Source: a virus
Strand: one strand, 5' to 3'
Virus record (IMG/VR): IMGVR_UViG_3300033146_002768
Coordinates: 34,305-98,304 of that record
Length of the DNA: 64,000 bases
The notes beneath the pieces were generated by a model, which was not told the origin of the DNA, did not search any database, and saw nothing but the letters and a program-made list of their open reading frames with translations. This document shows positions 3,303 through 61,820 of the stretch, piece after piece. A program made the position numbers and the translations under genes. Every line of letters starts with the position of its first letter. The stretch's first letter is position 1.

Positions 3303-5879
3303 GTGAATACAGATGAAGTTATTATAGGTCCTGATTATACAAGTATTATTGCTGGGAATGATGATGTACAAGGATTCCATAGAGACTTGAAAATCGGAGA
3401 AAAAACTGAAGTTCCATTTAATCCTTTATGTAGAAGAAGGACTATTAGAACAAGTGATTTTTATGCTAATTTGAAAAATAAAATTTCACCAACAACTGAG
3501 GTTTTACCTGACGGATGTAAGTTTTTTGATATTAGCACAACTGGTAGTAAAATGTTTGTTATTGAGCAACCGCCAAACATTAGAACCATTAGGGTTGATA
3601 TTGGGATAGAGCAGTTAATTGAAAAATTAAGATTAACTGGTAAATTAAAAGAATATGGATATGAGAATTATAAAAAAGATTTTAAAAGACATAAAGACGG
3701 ATATTATAATTTTCAACTTGCATTTCCATTTGTTGTTTTAATTATTGTATTAAATTCAAGAAATGAAATGTGCGAAATTCAACCATTCTTTAGAACTACA
3801 CCAGTTACAAGTGTATTAGATCATTTATATATAGCACCATTGTATAATGTTCCTACTGAACAAACGATGTGTATGGGGAGTGGTATTAGATCTTACAATA
3901 GTATTTCCGAAACGATTGATAACATTGTTGAACATTTCTGGATAAATGTCTATAACCAAGATTATACAAACAACTTGACTAAATATGGAAAAACTGAAGA
4001 ATACCGAGTTCATGATTATTTAACTTGGGCATACTTTACAAAACAAGATCCGATGTTTGTATTTGATGTCGACTGGATTCCATATCATTTAAAAATAGTT
4101 GATATTTTAAACAATATTAATACGAAGAGAGGTAGAACAAATTCATCTCATGATTCATATAATAGTATTTTTGGATCGGCATTTGAAGCTACATCGACAA
4201 GAAATAATACCAAAGCAATAGTTCATAATACAACATATTCAATGGCAATAAAACAGGGAGTCACAATAACTGTTGGTGATGAAATTTCATACAAAGATGA
4301 AAAGATGTATTTATATTCAATTTTAGCTGATAAAAATGGTTCATATGCAGGAGTTGAACTTGAAAATGAAAAGGGTGAAATTGAACATATAGAGTTTAAA
4401 ACTTTTGAGAAAAACTACAAAAATGCAATTAAAATTGTAAAACTCGATAAAGTTATTATAAACGGTAAGACGCTTAGCGAAGGGGATATTATTTCTTTTG
4501 ATGTTCTTGGAAACACAGTTTATAAAACAGTTCAATCAATCAGACAAGCTAAAGATGGTAGATTGGAAGCACTGATGAATAATGATCACTATCTAATTGA
4601 TAATTTAAAATTTGATATATTCGATTCATCAGCAATAAAAATAAATGGCTTACCTATTGATAAGAAAGGCACGTATCATATGCTTGCTATTCAAGACAGT
4701 AGCTGTCCTCTTTATCAAGTTTATGATTGTAAATTTCATTCACTTAGTGTTGGAAGTGGTAGTAGTATATCAATTAAATTTGAAGCAACAAATGGTAATA
4801 TGTATTACTTGAATCATAAAAATCATTTAGCTGGAACATCTGAATATGAGTTTATCAATAATGATTTAATTGAAATTCCTCCAGTTTTAATGTGGTTTGA
4901 TAAATTAATGACTAATAGAAAGGTAACTGAGTATAACGAACATTTTAAAATTATAAAGGGTCGTGGTATAAGTGTTGGTATTGGAATGAGAGTTAGAAGT
5001 TATTTTAATGGTGGTCAAGAGATATTAAAAACAATATTAATAGAAGACAATACTAGGTTACATATTCCAACTATTGGAACAGATATTGACTTTAGAGTTG
5101 GTGATCCAATTGTTTATGCTGGATGGAAAAATCCAGAAGATATGTTATTGATTTCTTCTATTACAAGATTTGAATATGATGAAAATCGGAATATGTTTTA
5201 TGTTTATAGTATGACTTTGAATAAAAAGAAAGAGTTTAAAATTCCTTTTATTAATTTTGGAAATAATAGAGTTAATGTTGGAATTATTAGGAAAGTTACA
5301 TCAAAATTTGGTACCTGGTCATCTGGTGATAAAATTATTGCTGAAACGCCTGGAGTAACTAACTTTCCTAAAAAGGATGTTAATACTATTATTGCTTTTA
5401 TTGATGATGGTAATGTTAAATATCCATTAGCACTTTGTTCTAACTTATGTACTTTATGGATGAATGATGATACCATGAGCAAGTTTAAAGTACTTAAGTT
5501 TAAATCAGCACCATGGAAAAAAGTTGAGAGTAATTTATTTAATATAGAAAAAATTAAATATCAACATGGTGATATGTTTAGATCTACTCAATATAATTTC
5601 TCATCTATTTATGTTGCTACAAAACGAAATGGATCAAGTTATGGAATGGATCTATCATATTGTAGTAATTATGGAACTATCGACAATGGAGGAGAAGCTA
5701 ATAAAAGCTATCTAGATCGTTCTTTTATAAGATATGGAATTTTAACACCTCGATATGCAACTACATCTTCTCAAGCTTCCAAGATTTCACAAGGATTCCC
5801 GAATATGTTAGGTGGATATTATTTTAACAAGTATGCAGGAACTTACTTTAGAAGTGATCAATTTAAGGAGGATTTTTAA
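3303..5879 (+). CDS. large hypothetical protein (858 aa), GTG start
   Basis: Long uninterrupted ORF. It ends 2 nt before the JAB gene start. No recognisable motifs. Confidence 0.6.
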   Translation: MNTDEVIIGPDYTSIIAGNDDVQGFHRDLKIGEKTEVPFNPLCRRRTIRTSDFYANLKNKISPTTEVLPDGCKFFDISTTGSKMFVIEQPPNIRTIRVDIGIEQLIEKLRLTGKLKEYGYENYKKDFKRHKDGYYNFQLAFPFVVLIIVLNSRNEMCEIQPFFRTTPVTSVLDHLYIAPLYNVPTEQTMCMGSGIRSYNSISETIDNIVEHFWINVYNQDYTNNLTKYGKTEEYRVHDYLTWAYFTKQDPMFVFDVDWIPYHLKIVDILNNINTKRGRTNSSHDSYNSIFGSAFEATSTRNNTKAIVHNTTYSMAIKQGVTITVGDEISYKDEKMYLYSILADKNGSYAGVELENEKGEIEHIEFKTFEKNYKNAIKIVKLDKVIINGKTLSEGDIISFDVLGNTVYKTVQSIRQAKDGRLEALMNNDHYLIDNLKFDIFDSSAIKINGLPIDKKGTYHMLAIQDSSCPLYQVYDCKFHSLSVGSGSSISIKFEATNGNMYYLNHKNHLAGTSEYEFINNDLIEIPPVLMWFDKLMTNRKVTEYNEHFKIIKGRGISVGIGMRVRSYFNGGQEILKTILIEDNTRLHIPTIGTDIDFRVGDPIVYAGWKNPEDMLLISSITRFEYDENRNMFYVYSMTLNKKKEFKIPFINFGNNRVNVGIIRKVTSKFGTWSSGDKIIAETPGVTNFPKKDVNTIIAFIDDGNVKYPLALCSNLCTLWMNDDTMSKFKVLKFKSAPWKKVESNLFNIEKIKYQHGDMFRSTQYNFSSIYVATKRNGSSYGMDLSYCSNYGTIDNGGEANKSYLDRSFIRYGILTPRYATTSSQASKISQGFPNMLGGYYFNKYAGTYFRSDQFKEDF

Positions 5880-5880
5880 T

Positions 5881-7005
5881 ATGTTTCCAATTTGGATGAA
5901 TGATGGAGAAACAGAAATGCCGACAGACGATATATTTTATATCGTAGCGAAAGATGGAATTTATTTGAAGAAGAGTATGGGACATTTTGATACTGTATCA
6001 AAAGTAGATGAAATCTCAATGCTCGGAGAATGTGAATCGTTTGCATTACTCCATGTATCAAAAATTACAACGAGACAATTTGCTCAGATCCTTACTTTAT
6101 TTAGGGAGGTTTATAAAAAATATAAAGCAGAATGTAATGTAATTTTACATTATAACATCAAAAGAAAAAGATATAGAATTGAAGTACCTCGACAGGACGT
6201 ATCAGGAGCAAGTGTTGATTATGCAAATGGTGAAGAATCTTATAAAAATTATATAAGAATCGGAACTATTCATAGTCATGCTAATATGACAGCATTTCAT
6301 TCAGGAACAGATCAGAGTGACGAAGAAGGTTGGGATGGATTACATATCACTCTTGGAAAGATGGATGAAGATTATTTTGAAATATCTTGTTCTGTTATGT
6401 CAAGTGGTGAAAGATTCATGGTTAATCCAGAAGATTACATTGAAGGAGTTGAGCTTATTGAATATGAAGTTCAGCGAAGTTATAAAGTTTATTCGTGGGA
6501 GAAAGGAAAGCAAATTGAGAAACCCCTTGAAAGAAAACTGGGTTATATCACTAATGCCCCTGAGAAAGATTTATGTCATCCAAAGAAATGGATGGACAAT
6601 GTTGATAAACATATACCAAAAGCGGTATCTCGTTATGGTGGTTACAATTATGGACAGTATGGAATGTATGGACATAATTATGTACCTGGTATGTATTCCA
6701 GTAGAAGATCAATAGAAAATTTCTATGATTATACAAATCCAAAAGGAGATGGTTTAACGGTTGGTCAAAATGCATTATTTTCTGATTTGGAAATCGGAGA
6801 CGATGAATGGAATGCTTGTATTCAATGTCCTTATAAAGAACATAAAGTTGGTGCATTAATTGAATCATATTTGAAACAGGCAACAGAAGATGAATTAGCA
6901 GAAATGGGGTTATTTTATCTTGAACTTGCTGATGAAACAGACAATTCTTTTGATGTTAATGAAAATGGTATAGACATAAACAAAGGCACTCAAGCTAAAA
7001 AATAG
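5881..7005 (+). CDS. JAB/MPN+ (JAMM) zinc metallopeptidase, candidate Ubl-processing or deconjugating enzyme
   Basis: JAMM motif E...HSHANMTAFHSGTDQSD (HxHx7Sx2D). Strong RBS AAGGAGG 9 nt upstream of the ATG at 5881. The ORF-track start at 5812 is rejected. Confidence 0.75.
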   Translation: MFPIWMNDGETEMPTDDIFYIVAKDGIYLKKSMGHFDTVSKVDEISMLGECESFALLHVSKITTRQFAQILTLFREVYKKYKAECNVILHYNIKRKRYRIEVPRQDVSGASVDYANGEESYKNYIRIGTIHSHANMTAFHSGTDQSDEEGWDGLHITLGKMDEDYFEISCSVMSSGERFMVNPEDYIEGVELIEYEVQRSYKVYSWEKGKQIEKPLERKLGYITNAPEKDLCHPKKWMDNVDKHIPKAVSRYGGYNYGQYGMYGHNYVPGMYSSRRSIENFYDYTNPKGDGLTVGQNALFSDLEIGDDEWNACIQCPYKEHKVGALIESYLKQATEDELAEMGLFYLELADETDNSFDVNENGIDINKGTQAKK

Positions 7006-8689: not shown

Positions 8690-8706
8690 TATTTAAAGTT
8701 GAATAA

Positions 8707-27724: not shown

Positions 27725-28061
27725 TTTTATTACTAATAGTTCATCAGCATCTTTTATTATGTCATTTAAAACTAAAGACAATATAAATCATGACGAGTTT
27801 AGAACTTTGTTTAATAAATATTTGGAAAGTTATAAAAGACAACATCCAAATAAATTAAGATTTTGGGATGCATCCATAATTTCAAAAGGTACTGATGACA
27901 AAGGTGATCTGATTTATACAGTAGAAGATGGAACTACCATGTATAATGATATGCATGATATACCTGAATACATGAGACTATTAATGATTGAATCTTATGT
28001 TAATGAATATGATTGGGGATTTCAAGTTGTTGGGTTTAAAGTAGAAGATGAACACTATTAA
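27708..28061 (+). CDS. DF-TNSSS family acidic protein, member 2
   Basis: MKLKSDFITNSSSASF. GGAGG 7 nt upstream of the ATG at 27708. Confidence 0.6.
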   Translation: MKLKSDFITNSSSASFIMSFKTKDNINHDEFRTLFNKYLESYKRQHPNKLRFWDASIISKGTDDKGDLIYTVEDGTTMYNDMHDIPEYMRLLMIESYVNEYDWGFQVVGFKVEDEHY

Positions 28062-28073
28062 AGGAAAATTAAT

Positions 28074-28457
28074 ATGAAACAAAAAACAGATTTTGTAACT
28101 AATTCAAGCTCATGCTCTTTTATCTTTGTTGGTTGGATTTTCAATAAAGAAGAAGGAAAAGTTAAAGAGTTAATGGAAATGTTTGGTTCTAAATATGATC
28201 CAGAATTTAGTGATTCTGAAAATATTTATGAAGTTTATGAAATTGATAATAATAACGGTCCTGATATTGTAATTGGAGATTATGATAATGGACTTAATGA
28301 AGATAAAATATACGTAGGTAATCATAACAGAGTCAGTGAAGATGATACTATGGAATTATCAATTCAAGATATTATTGATTCTAATAAAGAAGTCAAAGAT
28401 AAAGAAGGGTTTGATCCCAAAGATATTAAAATAGTCTCGAGGATTATGATGTGTTGA
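28074..28457 (+). CDS. DF-TNSSS family acidic protein, member 3
   Basis: MKQKTDFVTNSSSCSF. Confidence 0.6.
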   Translation: MKQKTDFVTNSSSCSFIFVGWIFNKEEGKVKELMEMFGSKYDPEFSDSENIYEVYEIDNNNGPDIVIGDYDNGLNEDKIYVGNHNRVSEDDTMELSIQDIIDSNKEVKDKEGFDPKDIKIVSRIMMC

Positions 28458-28458
28458 T

Positions 28459-29004
28459 ATGAAAATTAAACAAGACTTTGTTACAAATAGCTCAAGTACT
28501 TCTTTTACCTTTGTATTTAAAGGTACTACGAGAAATGATCTATTTGAACAACTTTATAAAAATAAAGAAGAATTTAATCTGGAGTATGATACCTGGGATG
28601 ATAGATTATTTAAAATGGAAGTTTGGGATATAATATCAACTATATTAGGTTTTATTAAAAAAGATAAATATGACAGATATTATAAACCAGATATTTATCC
28701 AGTTGCATCATTAGTAGAATATATTGAAAAAGAAATTCAAGATATGAAAAAGTATATTCAGGATACAGATGATGGCAATAAGTCTATGATTAGTTATTAT
28801 GATTCTGATATAAATAAAAGAGAAAAAGATCTCAAAGAAATAAATAGATTAATTGATACAGGTGAAATATTTTCAACATTTGAATTATCGTTTGGTAATG
28901 ATGGTGTTGTTAGTGGTGATTTAGGAACTGTTATGGAGATGGAATGTGTTTGGGATGATTATGAGAATAAGGAATTTTTTATAGTCCGTGATAGTCAACA
29001 TTAA
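28459..29004 (+). CDS. DF-TNSSS family acidic protein, member 4
   Basis: MKIKQDFVTNSSSTSF. Confidence 0.6.
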   Translation: MKIKQDFVTNSSSTSFTFVFKGTTRNDLFEQLYKNKEEFNLEYDTWDDRLFKMEVWDIISTILGFIKKDKYDRYYKPDIYPVASLVEYIEKEIQDMKKYIQDTDDGNKSMISYYDSDINKREKDLKEINRLIDTGEIFSTFELSFGNDGVVSGDLGTVMEMECVWDDYENKEFFIVRDSQH

Positions 29005-29039
29005 AAGAAATTATTTTCATATAAAGGAACATATTAAAA

Positions 29040-29417
29040 ATGAAAGACTTTAAATATTATACATTGTTTGGAGTTCGTCTTAGAAGAGGTGACAACATGA
29101 TTCCTAAATATGATAGGGATTTTCTATTAAGATGGACTTCACATGAAAGAACTAATGCCGATAGAGCTAAAGCTATGGTTGATAATAAGATGTTTAAAAC
29201 AACTGATGGTCAAGCTATTGCTGCTGTTGGTATTGGAAATGAAGCTCATTCTATTCATGGTATAAAATTGAGAGTAATTTATAATCCAGAAATATCTAGT
29301 CATCTATATGAAACAGATTTTGTTTTGACAGATGAATGGTTAGATTTATTAATTGACTCGGCTAACTATTCCGATCATGGTAAAAAAATGTTAGCTGAGT
29401 CTAAAATCCGTTTATAG
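29040..29417 (+). CDS. hypothetical protein
   Basis: 125-aa ORF interrupting the paralog array. Confidence 0.45.
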   Translation: MKDFKYYTLFGVRLRRGDNMIPKYDRDFLLRWTSHERTNADRAKAMVDNKMFKTTDGQAIAAVGIGNEAHSIHGIKLRVIYNPEISSHLYETDFVLTDEWLDLLIDSANYSDHGKKMLAESKIRL

Positions 29418-29426
29418 GAGAATGAT

Positions 29427-29882
29427 ATGAAACAGAAGCAAGATTTTATTACAAATTCAAGTAGTTGTAGTTTTGTTGCTTGGGGAATTTCAATGAATGC
29501 TGAAGCTCTAAAAGAAACATGCGGGAAGAGATTATTTGAATTAAAACAAAGAAAAGATGACTTAGAAAAAGCTAAAAAAGCAACTGAGAGTGGAGCTTTT
29601 ATGGTAATTAAAAGTGATTTAAAAGAAGACCCAAAAGAATTAGAAGAATTTCTTGAAGATGTTGACTTTGTTTGGGAAATTGAAAGTTTAATTCCAGGTC
29701 TTGATGTTCAAACAATGCCTTATGAAGATGAAATTATGATTGGGGAATCTCCATTTGCTCAGAAACCTAACCAAACATTAACTGAATTTAAACAAGATAT
29801 TAGCGATAAGTTAACTGATCTTGGTATTGAAACTAAACCGGATGAACTTTTACAAATAGAAGAATGTTGGATGGACGGATAA
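29427..29882 (+). CDS. DF-TNSSS family acidic protein, member 5
   Basis: MKQKQDFITNSSSCSF. TAGGAGA RBS. Confidence 0.6.
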   Translation: MKQKQDFITNSSSCSFVAWGISMNAEALKETCGKRLFELKQRKDDLEKAKKATESGAFMVIKSDLKEDPKELEEFLEDVDFVWEIESLIPGLDVQTMPYEDEIMIGESPFAQKPNQTLTEFKQDISDKLTDLGIETKPDELLQIEECWMDG

Positions 29883-29892
29883 AGGAGGATAT

Positions 29893-30060
29893 ATGTTTAC
29901 AGGTATAGTAACAGCGTTATCAATATTCATTAGTATCGGCATAACAAAAAATGTTATAACTGATAGTTCTGGTAAAACAAGTCATGCTGTCAAAGGGATT
30001 CTTAAAGATGCTATTATATGGCCGAAAGATTTATATAACAAATATAAGGATAAAATATGA
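29893..30060 (+). CDS. small hydrophobic protein (55 aa), not in the ORF track
   Basis: AAGGAGG upstream. MFTGIVTALSIFISIGIT. Its stop overlaps the ATG of the next gene (ATGA). Confidence 0.35.
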   Translation: MFTGIVTALSIFISIGITKNVITDSSGKTSHAVKGILKDAIIWPKDLYNKYKDKI

Positions 30061-30662
30061 AAAGTTTTTTAAATATAGCTGCAGGTAAGATCAATCCATT
30101 AAAGTTTGAGAATAAGGAATGTTTCTTAGTTCAGTTAGATAAAATGTATTGGGCAATTAATCCACCAAATGTAATTGAAACAGAACATGCCATGTGGTTA
30201 GAGAACCCTAAAGATAAAAATGTTATATGTCATACTGATCTTGATGTTTTTGAATTTCTTGGAAATTATAAATTTCAATTTGATAATATATCATGTTATA
30301 GATTTCTTGAGCACATAACAAAAACTGAAATCCAAACATTTATTTATCTTCTTTCAACTGCATTAAAGGTAGGTGGTGAGCTTGATATCATTGTTCCTAA
30401 TTATGAAACCTTAGCTGATATGATTCTTACTGAGAATCTTGATGATAAAGTTAAACATAGTGATTGGGAAAAACATGATACAATGTTAACGTATGAACTA
30501 TTAAATGAACCATCTATGCCTCATGCATCTATATGGACTCCAGCAAGAATAAGGTATTTCTTTAATTTAGAAGAAAGATTTGAATTGCGGGTGATAGAAC
30601 CAAACTATGAGTTTGATGGAAGAGATTTATATATAAGAGCAGTTTTTAGAAGAATTAAATAA
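30057..30662 (+). CDS. class I SAM-dependent methyltransferase-like protein
   Basis: YRFLEHI...LKVGGELDIIVPN resembles the Methyltransf_11/23 post-motif II. N-terminal NIAAGK. Confidence 0.45.
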   Translation: MKSFLNIAAGKINPLKFENKECFLVQLDKMYWAINPPNVIETEHAMWLENPKDKNVICHTDLDVFEFLGNYKFQFDNISCYRFLEHITKTEIQTFIYLLSTALKVGGELDIIVPNYETLADMILTENLDDKVKHSDWEKHDTMLTYELLNEPSMPHASIWTPARIRYFFNLEERFELRVIEPNYEFDGRDLYIRAVFRRIK

Positions 30663-30777
30663 TATGTCCGACTCCTTTAACAGGTTAGTGCATTTTGTTT
30701 TTTTGAATGTCTGCAAACTCTGCATTAGTTGATTAGTTTGCACTATAAAATGAATTGCTTTTCAACTACTCCACAGG

Positions 30778-30837
30778 TGGAAAGAAAAGCGGGGGATAAT
30801 CCTTTAACAAGAGTTTGCAACCCCCGCACCCTTTCCA
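30778..30837 (+). other. Nested GC-rich stem-loop: outer stem TGGAAAG / CTTTCCA, inner stem GCGGGGG / CCCCCGC, 25-nt loop
   Basis: Read from the sequence. Lies in the 252-bp intergenic region 30663-30914, which also holds an 8-bp palindrome TGCAAACT...AGTTTGCA at 30712-30742. Confidence 0.5.
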
Positions 30838-30864
30838 TTATAATCATTATAAAAATGAGAATTT

Positions 30865-30875
30865 ATATATATTAA
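30865..30875. promoter_or_regulatory. ATATATATTAA motif copy (extended tTATATATATTAAtata), about 40 nt upstream of the ATG at 30915
   Basis: Exact 11-mer recurring in intergenic regions. Confidence 0.4.
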
Positions 30876-30914
30876 TATACATAACATAACACAGATATTT
30901 GTAGGAAAAAAGTT

Positions 30915-31277
30915 ATGAAAAAGAAAATTGATTTTGTGACAAATAGCTCAAGTGTTTCATTTATAATCGCCACTGATAAAGAAGATACTTCATTGAAAAT
31001 TAAGTTAGAAATTGAAGTTGATTTGAGGGATTATATAGTCGCATCATGTTCTACTAAACAAGCTCTTAAAGATTATTGGCTTGATGATATGCATGGTGAT
31101 GATGAAGATGAAGAATATTTGAATTATCAATCTTTAATTGACGAAGGTAAAACTGTTCATTTTCTTGATTGTAGTGATGAAAATGAAACAACAGAAACAT
31201 TACTTTGTTATAAAGGATTAAATGATATTAAATTTCCCGATGACGTTATAGTTATGCAGGGACAAGGAGGTTATTAA
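30915..31277 (+). CDS. DF-TNSSS family acidic protein, member 6
   Basis: MKKKIDFVTNSSSVSF. Confidence 0.6.
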   Translation: MKKKIDFVTNSSSVSFIIATDKEDTSLKIKLEIEVDLRDYIVASCSTKQALKDYWLDDMHGDDEDEEYLNYQSLIDEGKTVHFLDCSDENETTETLLCYKGLNDIKFPDDVIVMQGQGGY

Positions 31278-31346
31278 ATGCACAAGTAGACTTTAAATGT
31301 TAACTGGTGAAAACAAATTATTAATTTAAAGAATGGAGAAAAAGTT

Positions 31347-32693
31347 ATGTACGAAAATGACAATGAAAATACCACATTTATGGGGTTGTCTATTAAAAAA
31401 GTTAGTTCTATTAGTGTTCTTCTGGCAATCGTGATATTTGGTCTTATCTTTATGCCTCAGCTTATTGATACGGTTGATAAAGGTACTTATCAAATTAAAC
31501 AGGCAGCAGTTTCTGGAAAGATGTCAGCAAAGATGACTCCTGGTATTTGGATGCAAATGTTTGGTGATATTGATGTATGGCCAAAAGCTCAGACTTTCTT
31601 CTTTACACATGACAATGATGTAAAGGGAGATGTTGATGCAGATAAATCAATTGAAGTAAGATTCAATGATGGTTCTATTTGTAATATATCTGGAACTGCA
31701 CGTATTTTAATGCCTACTTCTGAAGCAGCTGCTATTCATTTAGTAACTGAACTTGGGCATAGAACATATGCTGATGTTGAATCTAAACTTATTAAACCTA
31801 CTGTAAGAAATGTCTTGCGTCATACTGCTAACCTTATGAATGCAACTGAATCTTATATGACCAAACGTGGTGAGTTTATTAGATATGCAAGAGATCAGAT
31901 TACTAATGGTCTTTATGAAACTGATACTACAACCAAACAAATTAAAGATTTAGTTTCTGGTGAGATGACTTGGAAAGAAATAACTATCATCAAAATGAAA
32001 GATGGTAAACCTATTTATCAATTTAACCCACTTGCTGGTACTGATATTGGCATTAAGAACTTTGAAGTTAAAAAGTTTAAATATAAAGATAAGGTTAAAG
32101 AGCAGATTAGTAAACAACAGACTGCAAGAATGGCTGTAGCAACTGCTAAAGCTAAAGCTCAAGAAGCTGAGCAGGATAAGCTTACTATTGAAGCTCAGGG
32201 TAAAGCAAGAGTTGCAAAAGCTGAATATGCTGAGTTGGAAAAGAAAGCTATTGTAATTGTACAGGCTGAAAGAGATAAGGAAACAGCTCTTATTAAGTCT
32301 AACAAAGAAAAAGAAATGGCTGCTATATCCAAAGAAAAAGCTATTATTGAAGCAACTAAAAAGAAAGAAGTTGCTGCTCTTGATGCCAAAGCTGCTTATG
32401 AGGAAAAGAAAGCTAACATCCTAAGGGGTGATGGTGAAGCTCATAGAAAAAGAGTTGTTATGAAAGCTGATGGTGCTCTTGAAAAGAAACTTGCTGCATG
32501 GTTATCTGCTCAGGAAGTTTATGCCCGTGAGTTCGGTAAACAAAAGTGGGTTCCAAATATTCAGATGGGGACTACTGGAGATACAACTGGTGGTGGCGCT
32601 GTAAGTCAGTTCATGGATCTTTTAAGTGCTAAAGCTGCAAAAGAACTTGCTTTAGATCTTGATATGAATATGGGAAACAAAGTAACTCAATAA
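31347..32693 (+). CDS. SPFH/band-7 (flotillin/prohibitin-like) membrane protein
   Basis: N-terminal transmembrane segment VSSISVLLAIVIFGLIFMP, a central globular domain, and a long Ala/Lys/Glu-rich coiled-coil C-terminus typical of SPFH proteins. Confidence 0.5.
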   Translation: MYENDNENTTFMGLSIKKVSSISVLLAIVIFGLIFMPQLIDTVDKGTYQIKQAAVSGKMSAKMTPGIWMQMFGDIDVWPKAQTFFFTHDNDVKGDVDADKSIEVRFNDGSICNISGTARILMPTSEAAAIHLVTELGHRTYADVESKLIKPTVRNVLRHTANLMNATESYMTKRGEFIRYARDQITNGLYETDTTTKQIKDLVSGEMTWKEITIIKMKDGKPIYQFNPLAGTDIGIKNFEVKKFKYKDKVKEQISKQQTARMAVATAKAKAQEAEQDKLTIEAQGKARVAKAEYAELEKKAIVIVQAERDKETALIKSNKEKEMAAISKEKAIIEATKKKEVAALDAKAAYEEKKANILRGDGEAHRKRVVMKADGALEKKLAAWLSAQEVYAREFGKQKWVPNIQMGTTGDTTGGGAVSQFMDLLSAKAAKELALDLDMNMGNKVTQ

Positions 32694-34178: not shown

Positions 34179-34216
34179 AAAACTCCCAGGTCTTAATTGA
34201 TCTGGGAGTTTTTTTT
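34179..34216 (+). terminator. Rho-independent terminator: 11-bp stem AAAACTCCCAG / CTGGGAGTTTT followed by a T8 run
   Basis: Read from the sequence. Confidence 0.8.
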
Positions 34217-35531: not shown

Positions 35532-35921
35532 AAAACATACAATAAAAATCTCCCGAAGAAGACCCCATCTACCTGAAAACTAGCAGAATGTTTTTTGGGG
35601 GTTTATAATTAGGTTAAAAGGTTAATTTTAAAATCCAGGTTGTAATTTCTACATTTGTTGAGGTCGAATACATTTGAAATGTTCCTTTTTAAGAGAACGT
35701 TTTTCTGTAGCTCAGCCATCTCCGAAATAACCAGAAACCTGTAGCTTTGCGTGGACCTAAGTCCGTGCCCTTTAGAACGCTAATTTAATAGCCGAAAAGA
35801 CTAAACACAAAACAATAAAACAAGATTCTATAATTTTAATGTGTCAAATTAAAATTTTTATTTTAATATACACCCAATGTATATACTAAATATTGTACGA
35901 GAATCTCTTGCTTTAGGTAAA

Positions 35922-35932
35922 TTAATATATAT
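35922..35932. promoter_or_regulatory. Inverted copy of the ATATATATTAA motif (plus strand TTAATATATAT) in the 456-bp non-coding region upstream of terL
   Basis: Exact reverse complement of the 11-mer. Confidence 0.3.
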
Positions 35933-35987
35933 AATTGTACATTCTATCCAAGACAACATTTAGAACAAATAAAAAAGGGAGAATAGT

Positions 35988-37625
35988 ATGAATGCAATTA
36001 TGAATAAACAACAAAAGGTACAACAATCAGCTCAACGTTATGTACAAGAGTGGATGAAATGTAAAAATTCATTTGATTATTTTTGTTCTAAATATATATT
36101 AATAGAAATGCCTGGTGGAGATATACCATTAAATCCATATAGACCACAATCAGAACTTATTAAAGCTATAAATAAAAAACATTATGTATTAGTATTAAAA
36201 TCAAGACAGATCGGTATATCAACTATTATTCAAGCTTATTCTGCTTGGTTGGCAACATTCTTTGATAATGTTGTTATAGGGATTGTTTCAAAAGATGGTA
36301 AGGAAGCAACCGACTTTGCAAGATTCATTAGAGGAATGATAGAGAAGTTACCTAAATGGATGGGTGCAATATTTGATAAAAAGACTGAGCAATCATTTAT
36401 TTTAACTAATGGTGCAAAAGTATATGTTTCACCTGTTAATCCTAATGCTCCAGAGAAAACCCTTCGTGGTAAGGCAATTACATTCTTAGTAATAGATGAG
36501 GCAGCTTTTATTAAATTTCTTGATACTGCTTGGACGTCAATGATTCCTGCATTATCTACTAATCAGATGCATGCAAGAAAAGCTAATGTTCCATATGGTA
36601 CTGTAGTATTATCAACACCAAATAAAACAGTTGGTCCTGGTAAATGGTTCTATGAAAAATATCAAAGAGCAGTTGGTGGTGATGATATATTTACAGAATT
36701 TACAATACATTGGAGAGATGTAAAAGAATTATCTGATGATCCAGGTTGGTATGATACTCAATGTCAACTATTTGAAAATGATCCAAATAAAATTCAACAG
36801 GAGTTAGAACTTAAATTCCTTGCTACAACTGGGTCTTTTTATAATGATCAAGTAACTCAAATATTACAAGAGCTTGATACTGATCCAATAGAAAGAATTA
36901 AATTATTTAATGGCGAATTTTGGAGATTTAAACATGCTATTCCAAACACTCATTATATAATTGGAGTTGATACTGCACCTGAACATGGTGAGGATAAGTC
37001 AGCCATAACAATATGGGACTATCAACATTTAGAACAAGTGGCTGAATATCAAGGAAAATGTAGAGTTGTTGATTTTGTTAAAGTTGTTAAGGTTGCTGCT
37101 AGTCAATATCCTGGGACTATAGTAGTAGAGTCAAATTCATATGGTAATCATGTAGTTGAAGAAATGATGCGAAGTGAATTTTCTCATATGATGTATAAAG
37201 AATCAAGAGGTAATACAAAGGTTCCTGGTCTTCAAACAACTGCTAAAACAAGACCATTAATCATTGATGCTTTATATTCATTAGTAACAGAGTTTCCAGA
37301 AATTGTTAAATCAAAAAGATTAGTCCTTGAATTAATAGGACTTATTAGTAAACCGAGTGGAAGAGTAGAAGCTGATATAGGATGTCATGATGATATTGCA
37401 TTATCAGCGGGATTAGCTTTCTATGTTCATAAATATGATCCTGTATTAATGATGCAAAATAATACAGTAGCAAGCAATTTATTCACAGATGTTATGGCAT
37501 TAAATGATTATGGACCAGAAGTTATTAATGATACTTCTATTATGAGGCATGTCAAAGATAATTTAAGTAAACAAAAAGGTGTAATAAATACAATGGATTT
37601 CTTTTTTGGAGCTGATAGAGGATAA
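35988..37625 (+). CDS. terL: terminase large subunit
   Basis: Walker A-like VLVLKSRQIGISTII. Walker B FLVIDEAAF. C-terminal RNase-H-like nuclease region (IGVDTAPEHGEDKSAITIWD...CHDDIALS). Confidence 0.85.
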   Translation: MNAIMNKQQKVQQSAQRYVQEWMKCKNSFDYFCSKYILIEMPGGDIPLNPYRPQSELIKAINKKHYVLVLKSRQIGISTIIQAYSAWLATFFDNVVIGIVSKDGKEATDFARFIRGMIEKLPKWMGAIFDKKTEQSFILTNGAKVYVSPVNPNAPEKTLRGKAITFLVIDEAAFIKFLDTAWTSMIPALSTNQMHARKANVPYGTVVLSTPNKTVGPGKWFYEKYQRAVGGDDIFTEFTIHWRDVKELSDDPGWYDTQCQLFENDPNKIQQELELKFLATTGSFYNDQVTQILQELDTDPIERIKLFNGEFWRFKHAIPNTHYIIGVDTAPEHGEDKSAITIWDYQHLEQVAEYQGKCRVVDFVKVVKVAASQYPGTIVVESNSYGNHVVEEMMRSEFSHMMYKESRGNTKVPGLQTTAKTRPLIIDALYSLVTEFPEIVKSKRLVLELIGLISKPSGRVEADIGCHDDIALSAGLAFYVHKYDPVLMMQNNTVASNLFTDVMALNDYGPEVINDTSIMRHVKDNLSKQKGVINTMDFFFGADRG

Positions 37626-54494: not shown

Positions 54495-54513
54495 TCCACC
54501 TTGACGCCGGGCG

Positions 54514-54561
54514 ATACTCCCACATCATTGATTAATTTCTTTGATATGGGAGTATTTTTTT
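54514..54561 (+). terminator. Rho-independent terminator: 9-bp stem ATACTCCCA / TGGGAGTAT, long structured loop, T7 run
   Basis: Read from the sequence. Confidence 0.65.
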
Positions 54562-54565
54562 GTCG

Positions 54566-54763
54566 CTATTTTGCTTTGTCGTTTGAAATCGAGAAAGAAC
54601 GGAAATCTTTTAGTTGATTTGCAATAGCCATACTGAGTTTTCTAGCCTTTAAAGCTTTTGTTTTGCTTCCACGACCTTCTTTACCACCCTCAGCCATTTC
54701 AACAAATTCTTCAAATGCTTCTCTCAAAGTTTCTACAGATTCATTATACTCTGGTAAACTCAT
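54566..54763 (-). CDS. small basic protein
   Basis: 65-aa ORF. AAGGAGAT RBS. Confidence 0.4.
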   Translation of the reverse strand: MSLPEYNESVETLREAFEEFVEMAEGGKEGRGSKTKALKARKLSMAIANQLKDFRSFSISNDKAK

Positions 54764-54905
54764 GATAATCTCCTTTATTGTTTTATTATAATATCTACAA
54801 TACTTATAGATTTAATATATGTTCTTATATAAATACTATATCAGCATGTATACGGAAAAAACAGAGAATAGAAGACTTTAACATATTCTATTCCCTGCTT
54901 GTTAC

Positions 54906-61769: not shown

Positions 61770-61820
61770 TGTGGGGACTCAGCAATTAAGTTGAGCCCCC
61801 ACAGTCCATCTATTTTTTTT
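61770..61820. terminator. Bidirectional terminator between convergent genes: 12-bp stem with one mismatch (TGTGGGGACTCAG / TTGAGCCCCCACA), T8 on the + strand and TTTTT on the - strand
   Basis: Read from the sequence. Confidence 0.6.

Follow-up and report, generated by a model that had tools for sequence, protein, structure and literature searches.

A non-coding insertion of about 180 bp next to a conserved candidate promoter in an uncultured giant myophage

The intergenic gap of 252 bp at positions 30663-30914 of the analyzed DNA (a stretch of 64 kb, hereafter called the window) is a real, if minor, feature and most likely marks a transcript boundary. Comparison with related phages shows that it is composed of two unrelated parts, namely a single-copy insertion at its 5′ side and an ancestral promoter with leader at its 3′ side. 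The insertion contains a GC-rich hairpin, and we tentatively, at somewhat less than even probability, regard this hairpin as the boundary itself (a terminator, attenuator or processing site) ahead of the promoter. An earlier note on this sequence had described the gap as one element. The coordinates and sequence features given there are confirmed here but the gap is composite, as its 3′ third, including a copy of the motif ATATATATTAA, belongs to the conserved promoter/leader block outside the insertion.

Genomic setting and comparison with related phages

The window has a GC content of 0.302 and is densely coding. Two large proteins resembling the beta and beta′ subunits of RNA polymerase are encoded at 10987-16818, and further genes encode RtcB, radical-SAM enzymes, a large terminase, a tail sheath and baseplate proteins. 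The gap separates an open reading frame (ORF) at 30057-30662, a methyltransferase-like gene of 201 codons, from an ORF at 30915-31277, which is the sixth member of a series of paralogs. A comparison of the methyltransferase-like protein with 5.8 billion protein clusters gave one identical entry, located on a JGI metagenome contig of 207 kb, and all remaining matches had an identity of 72% or less. Based on the polymerase, terminase, tail sheath and baseplate genes together with the 207-kb source contig, we assign the window to an AT-rich giant myophage that is uncultured and encodes its own multisubunit RNA polymerase. The earlier note placed the gap in an otherwise gapless region, which is true locally but not for the window, where five other gaps of 245-456 bp are found. 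A possible origin of replication at the gap was considered and rejected, the GC-skew dip at 30700-30999 being merely a local run of C.

Relatives were gathered via the flanking proteins, which resulted in 12 distinct syntenic relatives. They have in common the gene order paralog 5, small gene, methyltransferase-like gene, paralog 6 and SPFH gene, which is ancestral. The segment 30663-~30842 is absent in all 12 of them. The methyltransferase-like and paralog genes are spaced 57-80 bp apart in L001, L003, L006, L047 and L173-L176, compared to 252 bp here, and in L048-L050 the two genes abut with 0 bp between them. DNA alignments with L001 and L003 skip from window position 30662 to 30845. Both the spacing in the relatives and this skip in the alignments identify the segment as an indel unique to this phage, with a length of about 180 bp, a single copy, boundaries that are accurate to about 3 bp and a GC content of 0.379. 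In L001, L003, L006, L047, L173/174 and L175/176 the stop codon is directly followed by ATACATTTAAAAAATGTT..TTATATATATTAATATACATAAC, and in the more distant L179/L180 a promoter-like motif likewise lies directly after the stop codon. The insertion occurred precisely at the junction of the methyltransferase-like gene's stop codon and the paralog gene's promoter.

Several lineages of relatives are at about the same distance from the window's proteins (66-75% identity). Given this equidistance and the position of the motif right after the stop codon in L179/L180, a single gain in this lineage is more parsimonious than several precise losses. One of the candidates put forward in the earlier note, the scar of an insertion, is thus supported by the lack of these ~180 bp in every syntenic relative found. 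The accompanying claim that the insertion had separated paralog 6 from paralogs 1-5 does not hold, because the relatives that lack the insert have the same gene order, with paralog 6 already set apart by the methyltransferase-like gene and the small gene. In the window, these two genes (201 and 55 aa) lie between paralogs 5 and 6, and paralogs 4 and 5 are also separated, by an unrelated gene of 125 aa (29040-29417).

The plus-strand segment 30843-30914, which follows the insert, is ancestral and represents the candidate promoter, with leader, of the paralog gene at 30915-31277; a conserved block and an AGGA ribosome-binding site lie in front of the start codon (ATG at 30915). This reading is based on conservation in the relatives and on the enrichment of ATATATATTAA. 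A block of 31 nt, TTATATATATTAATATACATAACATAACACA (30863-30893), is identical in L001, and its first 22-24 nt are kept in L003, L047, L173 and L175, although the flanking proteins of the relatives are merely 45-72% identical. Conservation in relatives, whose absence would according to the earlier note speak against the element, is found for 30843-30914 but not for the insert, which none of them contains. The copy of ATATATATTAA reported before is present at 30865-30875. The window contains six exact copies of this motif compared to 0.6 expected, a number reached in none of 100 shuffles; five of the six are intergenic, and the motif lies 50-59 bp upstream of the plus-strand ATGs at 30915, 53514 and 57829. 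The other copies of the promoter motif in the window have no adjacent GC hairpin. Copies with one mismatch are found on the minus strand at 30862-72 and 30872-82. The last 70 bp of the gap have a GC content of only 0.171 (0.7th percentile of the window).

Giant phages with their own polymerases have conserved AT-rich motifs of about 10 nt upstream of their early genes, centered near -10 (PMC7598289). The 3′ part of the gap agrees with this in its conserved and recurring AT-rich motif, about 10 nt long, and in the polymerase genes that the phage encodes. The likeness to the early promoters of phiKZ and AR9 (PMC7598289) is confined to 30861-30893, a conserved AT-rich motif of at least 10 nt that is present upstream of several genes; the motif sequence here differs in being specific to this clade, and it is known from sequence alone. 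In addition, sigma-70-like hexamers (TTGCAA-18-TATAAT, 30815-30844, plus strand) match at 10 of 12 positions across the right edge of the insert. Such promoter-like sites number 11 in 2 kb compared to 11.7 expected from shuffles, so that this pair does not exceed chance.

Another gap, 456 bp long (35532-35987) and located ahead of the terminase gene, contains a full-length, near-threshold match to the c-di-GMP-I (GEMM-I) riboswitch aptamer on the minus strand (35703-35779; 33.7 bits compared to a gathering threshold of 35, E of about 5e-5 for the stretch searched). On the same strand the match is preceded by an exact copy of the promoter motif (35932->35922), and an ORF of 19 codons and a short hairpin that has a T-run are located downstream. 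The gap is wholly missing in L006 and contains unrelated sequence in L003. This unit at 35.7 kb is a second lineage-specific non-coding cargo.

Internal organization and origin of the insert

The insert contains two hairpins, of which the structural elements had been correctly described in the earlier note. An 8-bp palindrome, with TGCAAACT at 30712-30719 and AGTTTGCA at 30735-30742, forms the hairpin TGCAAACT-N15-AGTTTGCA (30712-30742). The second hairpin is bipartite (30776-30839), with a 9-bp lower stem, an internal loop, a 7-bp upper stem consisting entirely of GC pairs and an apical loop of 25 nt. It comprises the nested stem-loop of 60 nt (30778-30837) noted before, in which the inner stem GCGGGGG/CCCCCGC (30789-30795 and 30821-30827) lies within the outer stem TGGAAAG/CTTTCCA (30778-30784 and 30831-30837). 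Folding of both strands, as proposed in that note, predicts that this large hairpin is stable on each of them, with -26.1 kcal/mol on the plus strand (z -4.2; none of 200 dinucleotide shuffles as stable) and -26.3 kcal/mol on the minus strand (z -3.7), but gives the palindromic hairpin by itself little stability (-9.6 kcal/mol, z -2.2). The minus strand of the insert region folds into three consecutive hairpins (z -2.5). Only when read on the minus strand does the upper stem have a T-rich run, TTTTCTTTCC, behind it; after the stem on the plus strand comes ACCCTTTCCATTAT, which is no U-tract. A local GC content far above the background had also been claimed. This is correct for the hairpin (0.483, 99.6th percentile) and the insert (95th percentile), but the gap as a whole has a GC content of 0.321, which is close to that of the window (68th percentile).

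Direct repeats connect the two hairpins. A repeat of 20 nt occurs on the plus strand at 30673-30692 (TCCTTTAACAGGTTAGTGCA, which contains an anti-Shine-Dalgarno-like CTCCTTT) and at 30800-30819 (TCCTTTAACA followed by AGAGTTTGCA), the latter copy being situated in the apical loop of the large hairpin. Both copies are identical over their first 10 nt and at 16 of 20 positions overall. The shorter direct repeats listed before are present as well, TCCTTTAACA at 30673 and 30800 and AGTTTGCA at 30735 and 30812. Both window sites of TCCTTTAACA are inside this stretch, and the window contains no perfect complement of it. The left palindrome arm, when extended, reads TGCAAACTCT and is perfectly complementary to 30810-30819. 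Since the loop segment AGAGTTTGCA pairs with 30712-30721 at 10 of 10 positions, the left arm has two alternative partners, and an alternative or pseudoknot pairing between 30712-30721 and 30810-30819 is possible. Internal repeats are more numerous than expected by chance. The number of inverted repeats of at least 7 nt (11) was reached in none of 2000 mononucleotide shuffles, and the length of the longest direct or the longest inverted repeat (10 nt each) was reached in 22 of 2000 for either.

The arrangement of these repeats could reflect a function at the DNA level, as an operator or a recombination site, which we consider improbable. As an operator, TGCAAACT-N15-AGTTTGCA, a third site (AGAGTTTGCA) and a degenerate fourth copy would be bound by a dimeric regulator just upstream of the promoter. 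The palindromic arrangement, the clustering of three of the five window sites of AGTTTGCA within 108 bp of this stretch and the position of the sites 45-150 bp upstream of the promoter agree with such a function. The palindrome is, however, found in none of the related loci compared, where the same promoter is regulated without it, other promoters of the window lack the motif, and no candidate regulator gene arrived with the insert.

The only ORF that comes into consideration is a doubtful one of 22 codons (MSDSFNRLVHFVFLNVCKLCIS, 30664-30732, plus strand). Its ATG lies one base past the upstream stop codon (TAATATG), and the strong hairpin follows 45 nt after its end, an organization that might be interpreted as a micro-protein of 22 residues coupled to the methyltransferase-like gene and equipped with its own terminator hairpin, i.e., a minimal “moron.” We consider this very improbable. 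The ORF has no ribosome-binding site of the GGAG/AGGA type seen ahead of other genes of the window, its length is what chance gives in AT-rich DNA, and the peptide shows no clear transmembrane or other signature. We found no coding remnant in the insert, as all six frames are broken by stop codons and tblastx gave no similarity to the compared sequences.

Known families and further copies were searched as well. No match to Rfam reached the gathering threshold in the whole window, and with E-values up to 10 the region 30400-31200 merely gave generic hairpins of microRNA models (21-23 bits compared to gathering thresholds of 73-90). ARAGORN predicted no tRNA or tmRNA in the window. A tRNA-like hairpin, with GCGGGGG/CCCCCGC as T-arm followed by CCA, was rejected, as its loop would be 27 nt long and a 5′ acceptor strand to match is lacking. 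Searches of the 64-kb window and of the relatives L001-L007 with blastn-short and tblastx revealed no second copy of the insert or the hairpin. In public phage genomes, the 2-kb region showed no resemblance at the DNA level; this region and the insert alone merely gave chance-level matches of 31-37 nt in unrelated coding genes (E at least 0.2). The IMG/VR, metagenome and genome collections were scanned with exact or degenerate patterns. In IMG/VR, a 21-mer across loop and stem and a structural pattern of the stem only both gave zero matches. A 16-base loop pattern gave 39 matches there, about the estimated chance number, in unrelated contexts and none with flanking stems, and a palindrome pattern, which is too unspecific, gave at least 120 chance matches, none of them alike beyond the pattern. 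A 20-mer of the loop matched once in the metagenome contigs, within a coding region of a 411-kb contig (judged to be chance), and the stem pattern matched once among 185,579 genomes, in an unrelated, GC-rich Ardenticatenales genome.

An element of the MITE type or one derived from an insertion sequence was rejected, since the ends (TATGTCCGAC... and ...CCTTTCCATTATA) do not form inverted repeats, the sequence is single-copy in the window and L001-L007, and there is no target-site duplication but merely a TA/TAT coincidence at the flanks. It is possible that the insert originated by illegitimate recombination or from a decayed inserted cassette. The insert may accordingly be neutral debris, left by illegitimate recombination, template switching or a decayed cassette (an eroded “moron”), with hairpins and repeats that would record how the sequence arose. 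We regard this as rather unlikely. The loop of the large hairpin consists of a copy of 30673-82 and the reverse complement of 30712-21, as serial copying yields, and a single-copy sequence that lacks homologues in the collections searched and is absent from every relative fits such an origin. Intergenic indels are moreover common here, given that the gap at 35532-35987 also varies between relatives. Against debris stand the very high stability of the hairpin for a genome with 30% GC (z -4.2, GC at the 99.6th percentile), the location of the insert exactly at the junction of operon and promoter, the lack of a detectable coding trace, and the compactness of giant-phage genomes, from which useless DNA tends to disappear.

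The hairpin as a candidate transcript boundary

We tentatively prefer a transcript boundary because a stable hairpin is located between a block of plus-strand genes and a conserved promoter, in a layout similar to that of known intergenic cassettes, and because gene-end hairpins also occur elsewhere in this clade. The insert would then form the 3′ untranslated region of the plus-strand operon located upstream, in which the bipartite hairpin of 60 nt may stop or attenuate read-through, perhaps that of a phage polymerase. Alternatively, the hairpin may be cut and then shield the 3′ end of the upstream mRNA. In either case, most expression of the paralog gene would come from its own promoter, uncoupled from read-through.

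GC-rich perfect hairpins are scarce here, as the 64-kb window contains eight of them, and five are found in intergenic gaps just after genes. The hairpins at 34179-34212 and 61770-61803 are canonical terminators with T-runs, and those at 8706 and 32705 have no T-runs. The hairpin after the SPFH gene occurs at the same position and with the same structure in six relatives, with differing stem sequences and no U-tract. That its position is kept despite these differences clearly points to the use of gene-end RNA hairpins in this clade, some of them without U-tracts.

Several observations argue against a boundary. The hairpin is located 116 nt past the stop codon, compared to 10-25 nt for the other gene-end hairpins of the clade, which have simple stems. 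On the plus strand it has no U-tract behind it, and usual intrinsic terminators have much smaller loops than its 25 nt; a scan for consensus terminators across 29800-31800 gave zero sites. This explanation gives no role to the left 115 nt of the insert, which include the palindrome and repeats. All relatives manage without a hairpin at this position, so that the insert may be neutral. Finally, the T-rich run after the GC stem on the minus strand would rather point to a terminator for that strand.

This last observation also bears on a small RNA gene in the insert, which we consider unlikely. In a minus-strand version, an RNA of about 85 nt would start from the near-palindromic motif (ATGTATATTAA, 30882->30872) and end at the hairpin and the UUUUCUUUCC run. 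The T-rich run that follows the GC stem on this strand only, the three consecutive hairpins (z -2.5) and the one-mismatch promoter motifs at 30862-72 and 30872-82 are consistent with it, as is the analogy with the other gap, in which a minus-strand motif, a riboswitch-like aptamer and a terminator resemble a stand-alone RNA unit. The promoter block is, however, conserved in the relatives for the plus-strand gene and not for a minus-strand RNA, and a 25-nt loop is atypical for a terminator. In a plus-strand version, the RNA would expose two anti-Shine-Dalgarno-like UCCUUU segments, one of them in the apical loop, that pair with ribosome-binding sites. The repeated TCCTTTAACA, which is found nowhere else in the window, might be seen as supporting a small RNA gene, but the window has no perfect complement of it. 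Moreover, no Rfam family matches and there is no homologue to reveal covariation. Less likely still is the more specific proposal that the insert is a newly acquired regulatory RNA gene without a family, giving either the reverse-side RNA of about 85 nt or a plus-strand RNA with two UCCUUUAACA that silence ribosome-binding sites. A transcript boundary on the plus strand remains our preferred, albeit tentative, reading.

Relation to known phage elements and implications

The junction of insert and promoter belongs with the known intergenic stem-loop/promoter junctions and the non-coding indels of phages. The closest layout is that of the PeSL cassettes of T4-type phages (Arbiol et al., 2010, PMC2839356; Comeau et al., 2014, PMC4122927), which combine an intergenic promoter with a stem-loop of a G-run and a C-run, terminate transcription and occur at indels (PMC2839356). 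The locus here likewise has a stable stem-loop with a G-run and a C-run beside an AT-rich phage promoter with ribosome-binding site, and is located at an indel between related phages, among small genes without assigned function. The succession of elements also corresponds, with the stop codon at 30662, the hairpin at 30776-30839, the motif at 30863-30893 and the ATG at 30915. There are nevertheless clear differences. PeSLs occur in about 50 similar copies per genome and serve as recombination linkers, whereas the structure described here is unique in the 64-kb window and has no counterpart in L001-L007. The promoter is not clearly sigma-70-like, its conserved motif being of another type. The stem-loop lies about 25 nt upstream of this motif, within a 180-bp insert that contains about 115 nt of extra sequence, and the phage itself is not of the T4 type.

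The likeness to intrinsic terminators consists of a GC-rich stem (7/7 GC) in an AT-rich genome, situated after a gene. It does not extend to the loop, with 25 nt here compared to the usual 3-8 nt, to the stem, which is bipartite with an internal loop, or to the U-tract, since the plus strand has none and a T-rich run exists for a hypothetical minus-strand transcript only. In the early and late mRNAs of phage T7, hairpins between genes are processed by RNase III, and cleavage leaves a protective 3′ stem-loop on the upstream mRNA. The predicted fold of the irregular intergenic hairpin of about 60 nt, with two stems and an internal loop, resembles these processing hairpins, but there is no sequence relationship. 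With morons, the insert shares that extra DNA is located precisely between two conserved genes, ends with a terminator-like hairpin and is absent from relatives. Morons, however, carry a protein gene with a promoter, and the insert contains at most the 22-codon ORF and no convincing promoter.

What the gap means depends on the reading. If the insert is debris, it merely documents intergenic indels in this clade. If a small RNA gene is present, it would join the very few non-coding RNAs known from giant phages and, together with the riboswitch-like unit at 35.7 kb, would indicate that this lineage gathers non-coding RNA “cargo” in intergenic sites; that unit may even be of more interest than the 252-bp gap. 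Regardless of what the insert does, this phage group can be annotated with the conserved AT-rich motif TTATATATATTAATA as a good promoter candidate. If the boundary element works, it would be a natural case of a giant phage that rewired an operon by one non-coding insertion of 180 bp, with the relatives showing the “before” state of the uncoupled gene. The stem-loop and promoter logic of T4-type phages would then extend to an unrelated group of phages that use their own RNA polymerase.

The candidate promoter motif and its surroundings

The motif (T)TATATATATTAA(T) occurs tenfold above chance in the window and nearly all of its copies are intergenic (30863-30893, 35922-32 on the minus strand, 36092, 53386, 53455, and 57774), making it a candidate clade-specific promoter. 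The copy at 36092 falls within the ORF annotated as terminase (35988-37625), about 100 nt from its start, so either the start codon of this ORF may be wrong or this motif copy may be internal. Just 5′ of the copy at 30863-30893, there is a small AT palindrome (30846-30859; 4604-4620 in L001, the locus of a relative), with arms that read TCATT..AATGA in the window versus ACATTT..AAATGT in the relatives. Its symmetry appears to be retained despite the change in the flank. The palindrome might serve as a binding site upstream of the promoter, or might have arisen by chance.

Further upstream, CAAACT-ATG-AGTTTG and ATGGAA occur near the 3′ end of the coding sequence of the methyltransferase-like gene (30601-30621) and echo the CAAACT/AGTTTG and TTCCAT motifs located 50-230 nt downstream in the lineage-specific insert (direct repeat D3 and inverted repeats I2, I15, and I16). 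Template switching when the insert arose may have left these echoes, or they may be a coincidence.

The paralog family

Six paralogous ORFs (27146, 27693, 28074, 28459, 29427, and 30915) are located within 27146-31277, immediately preceded by a radical-SAM gene (26049-27092). They are alike only in the N-terminal ~20 residues (MKxKxDFxTNSSSxSF), followed by tails that are unrelated to each other and often acidic. A Pfam search of the six proteins gave no match, and PHROG 7397 was their only, weak, PHROG match. The relatives keep both the family and its order.

Candidate RNA elements

The non-coding gap 35532-35987 contains a full-length Rfam match to the c-di-GMP-I (GEMM-I) aptamer on the minus strand (35703-35779). 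This near-threshold match scores 33.7 bits, the gathering score being 35, with E ~5e-5 over the region scanned. Still on the minus strand, the match is flanked on one side by an exact copy of the promoter motif, ATATATATTAA (35932→35922), and on the other side by a 19-codon ORF and a hairpin with a T-run (~35562→35540); no ordinary gene is present downstream. The gap is wholly missing in relative L006, while L003 carries unrelated sequence at this position, and no c-di-GMP-I match was found among the relatives L001-L007. The RNA could be a stand-alone cyclic-dinucleotide-binding RNA.

Four more non-coding gaps measure 260-440 bp (19776-20039, 22121-22381, 23422-23863, and 54495-54905). The first and last of these fold somewhat better than shuffled sequences (z ~-2.3 to -3.3). 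No credible match emerged when 19700-23900 was scanned against Rfam under relaxed settings, and a scan of the whole window at the gathering threshold gave none in 54495-54905.

A hairpin lies directly 3′ of the SPFH/Band-7 gene in seven phages, i.e., in the window (32705-31) and in six relatives (L001, ~6498-6531; L002, ~6369-6397; L003, ~6366-6389; L006, ~5144-5175; L047, ~4524-4556; L048, ~4897-4930). Position and structure are constant among these phages but the sequence is not, and most copies miss a U-tract. In this comparison, the hairpin has the appearance of a gene-end RNA element that is conserved and carries compensatory changes.
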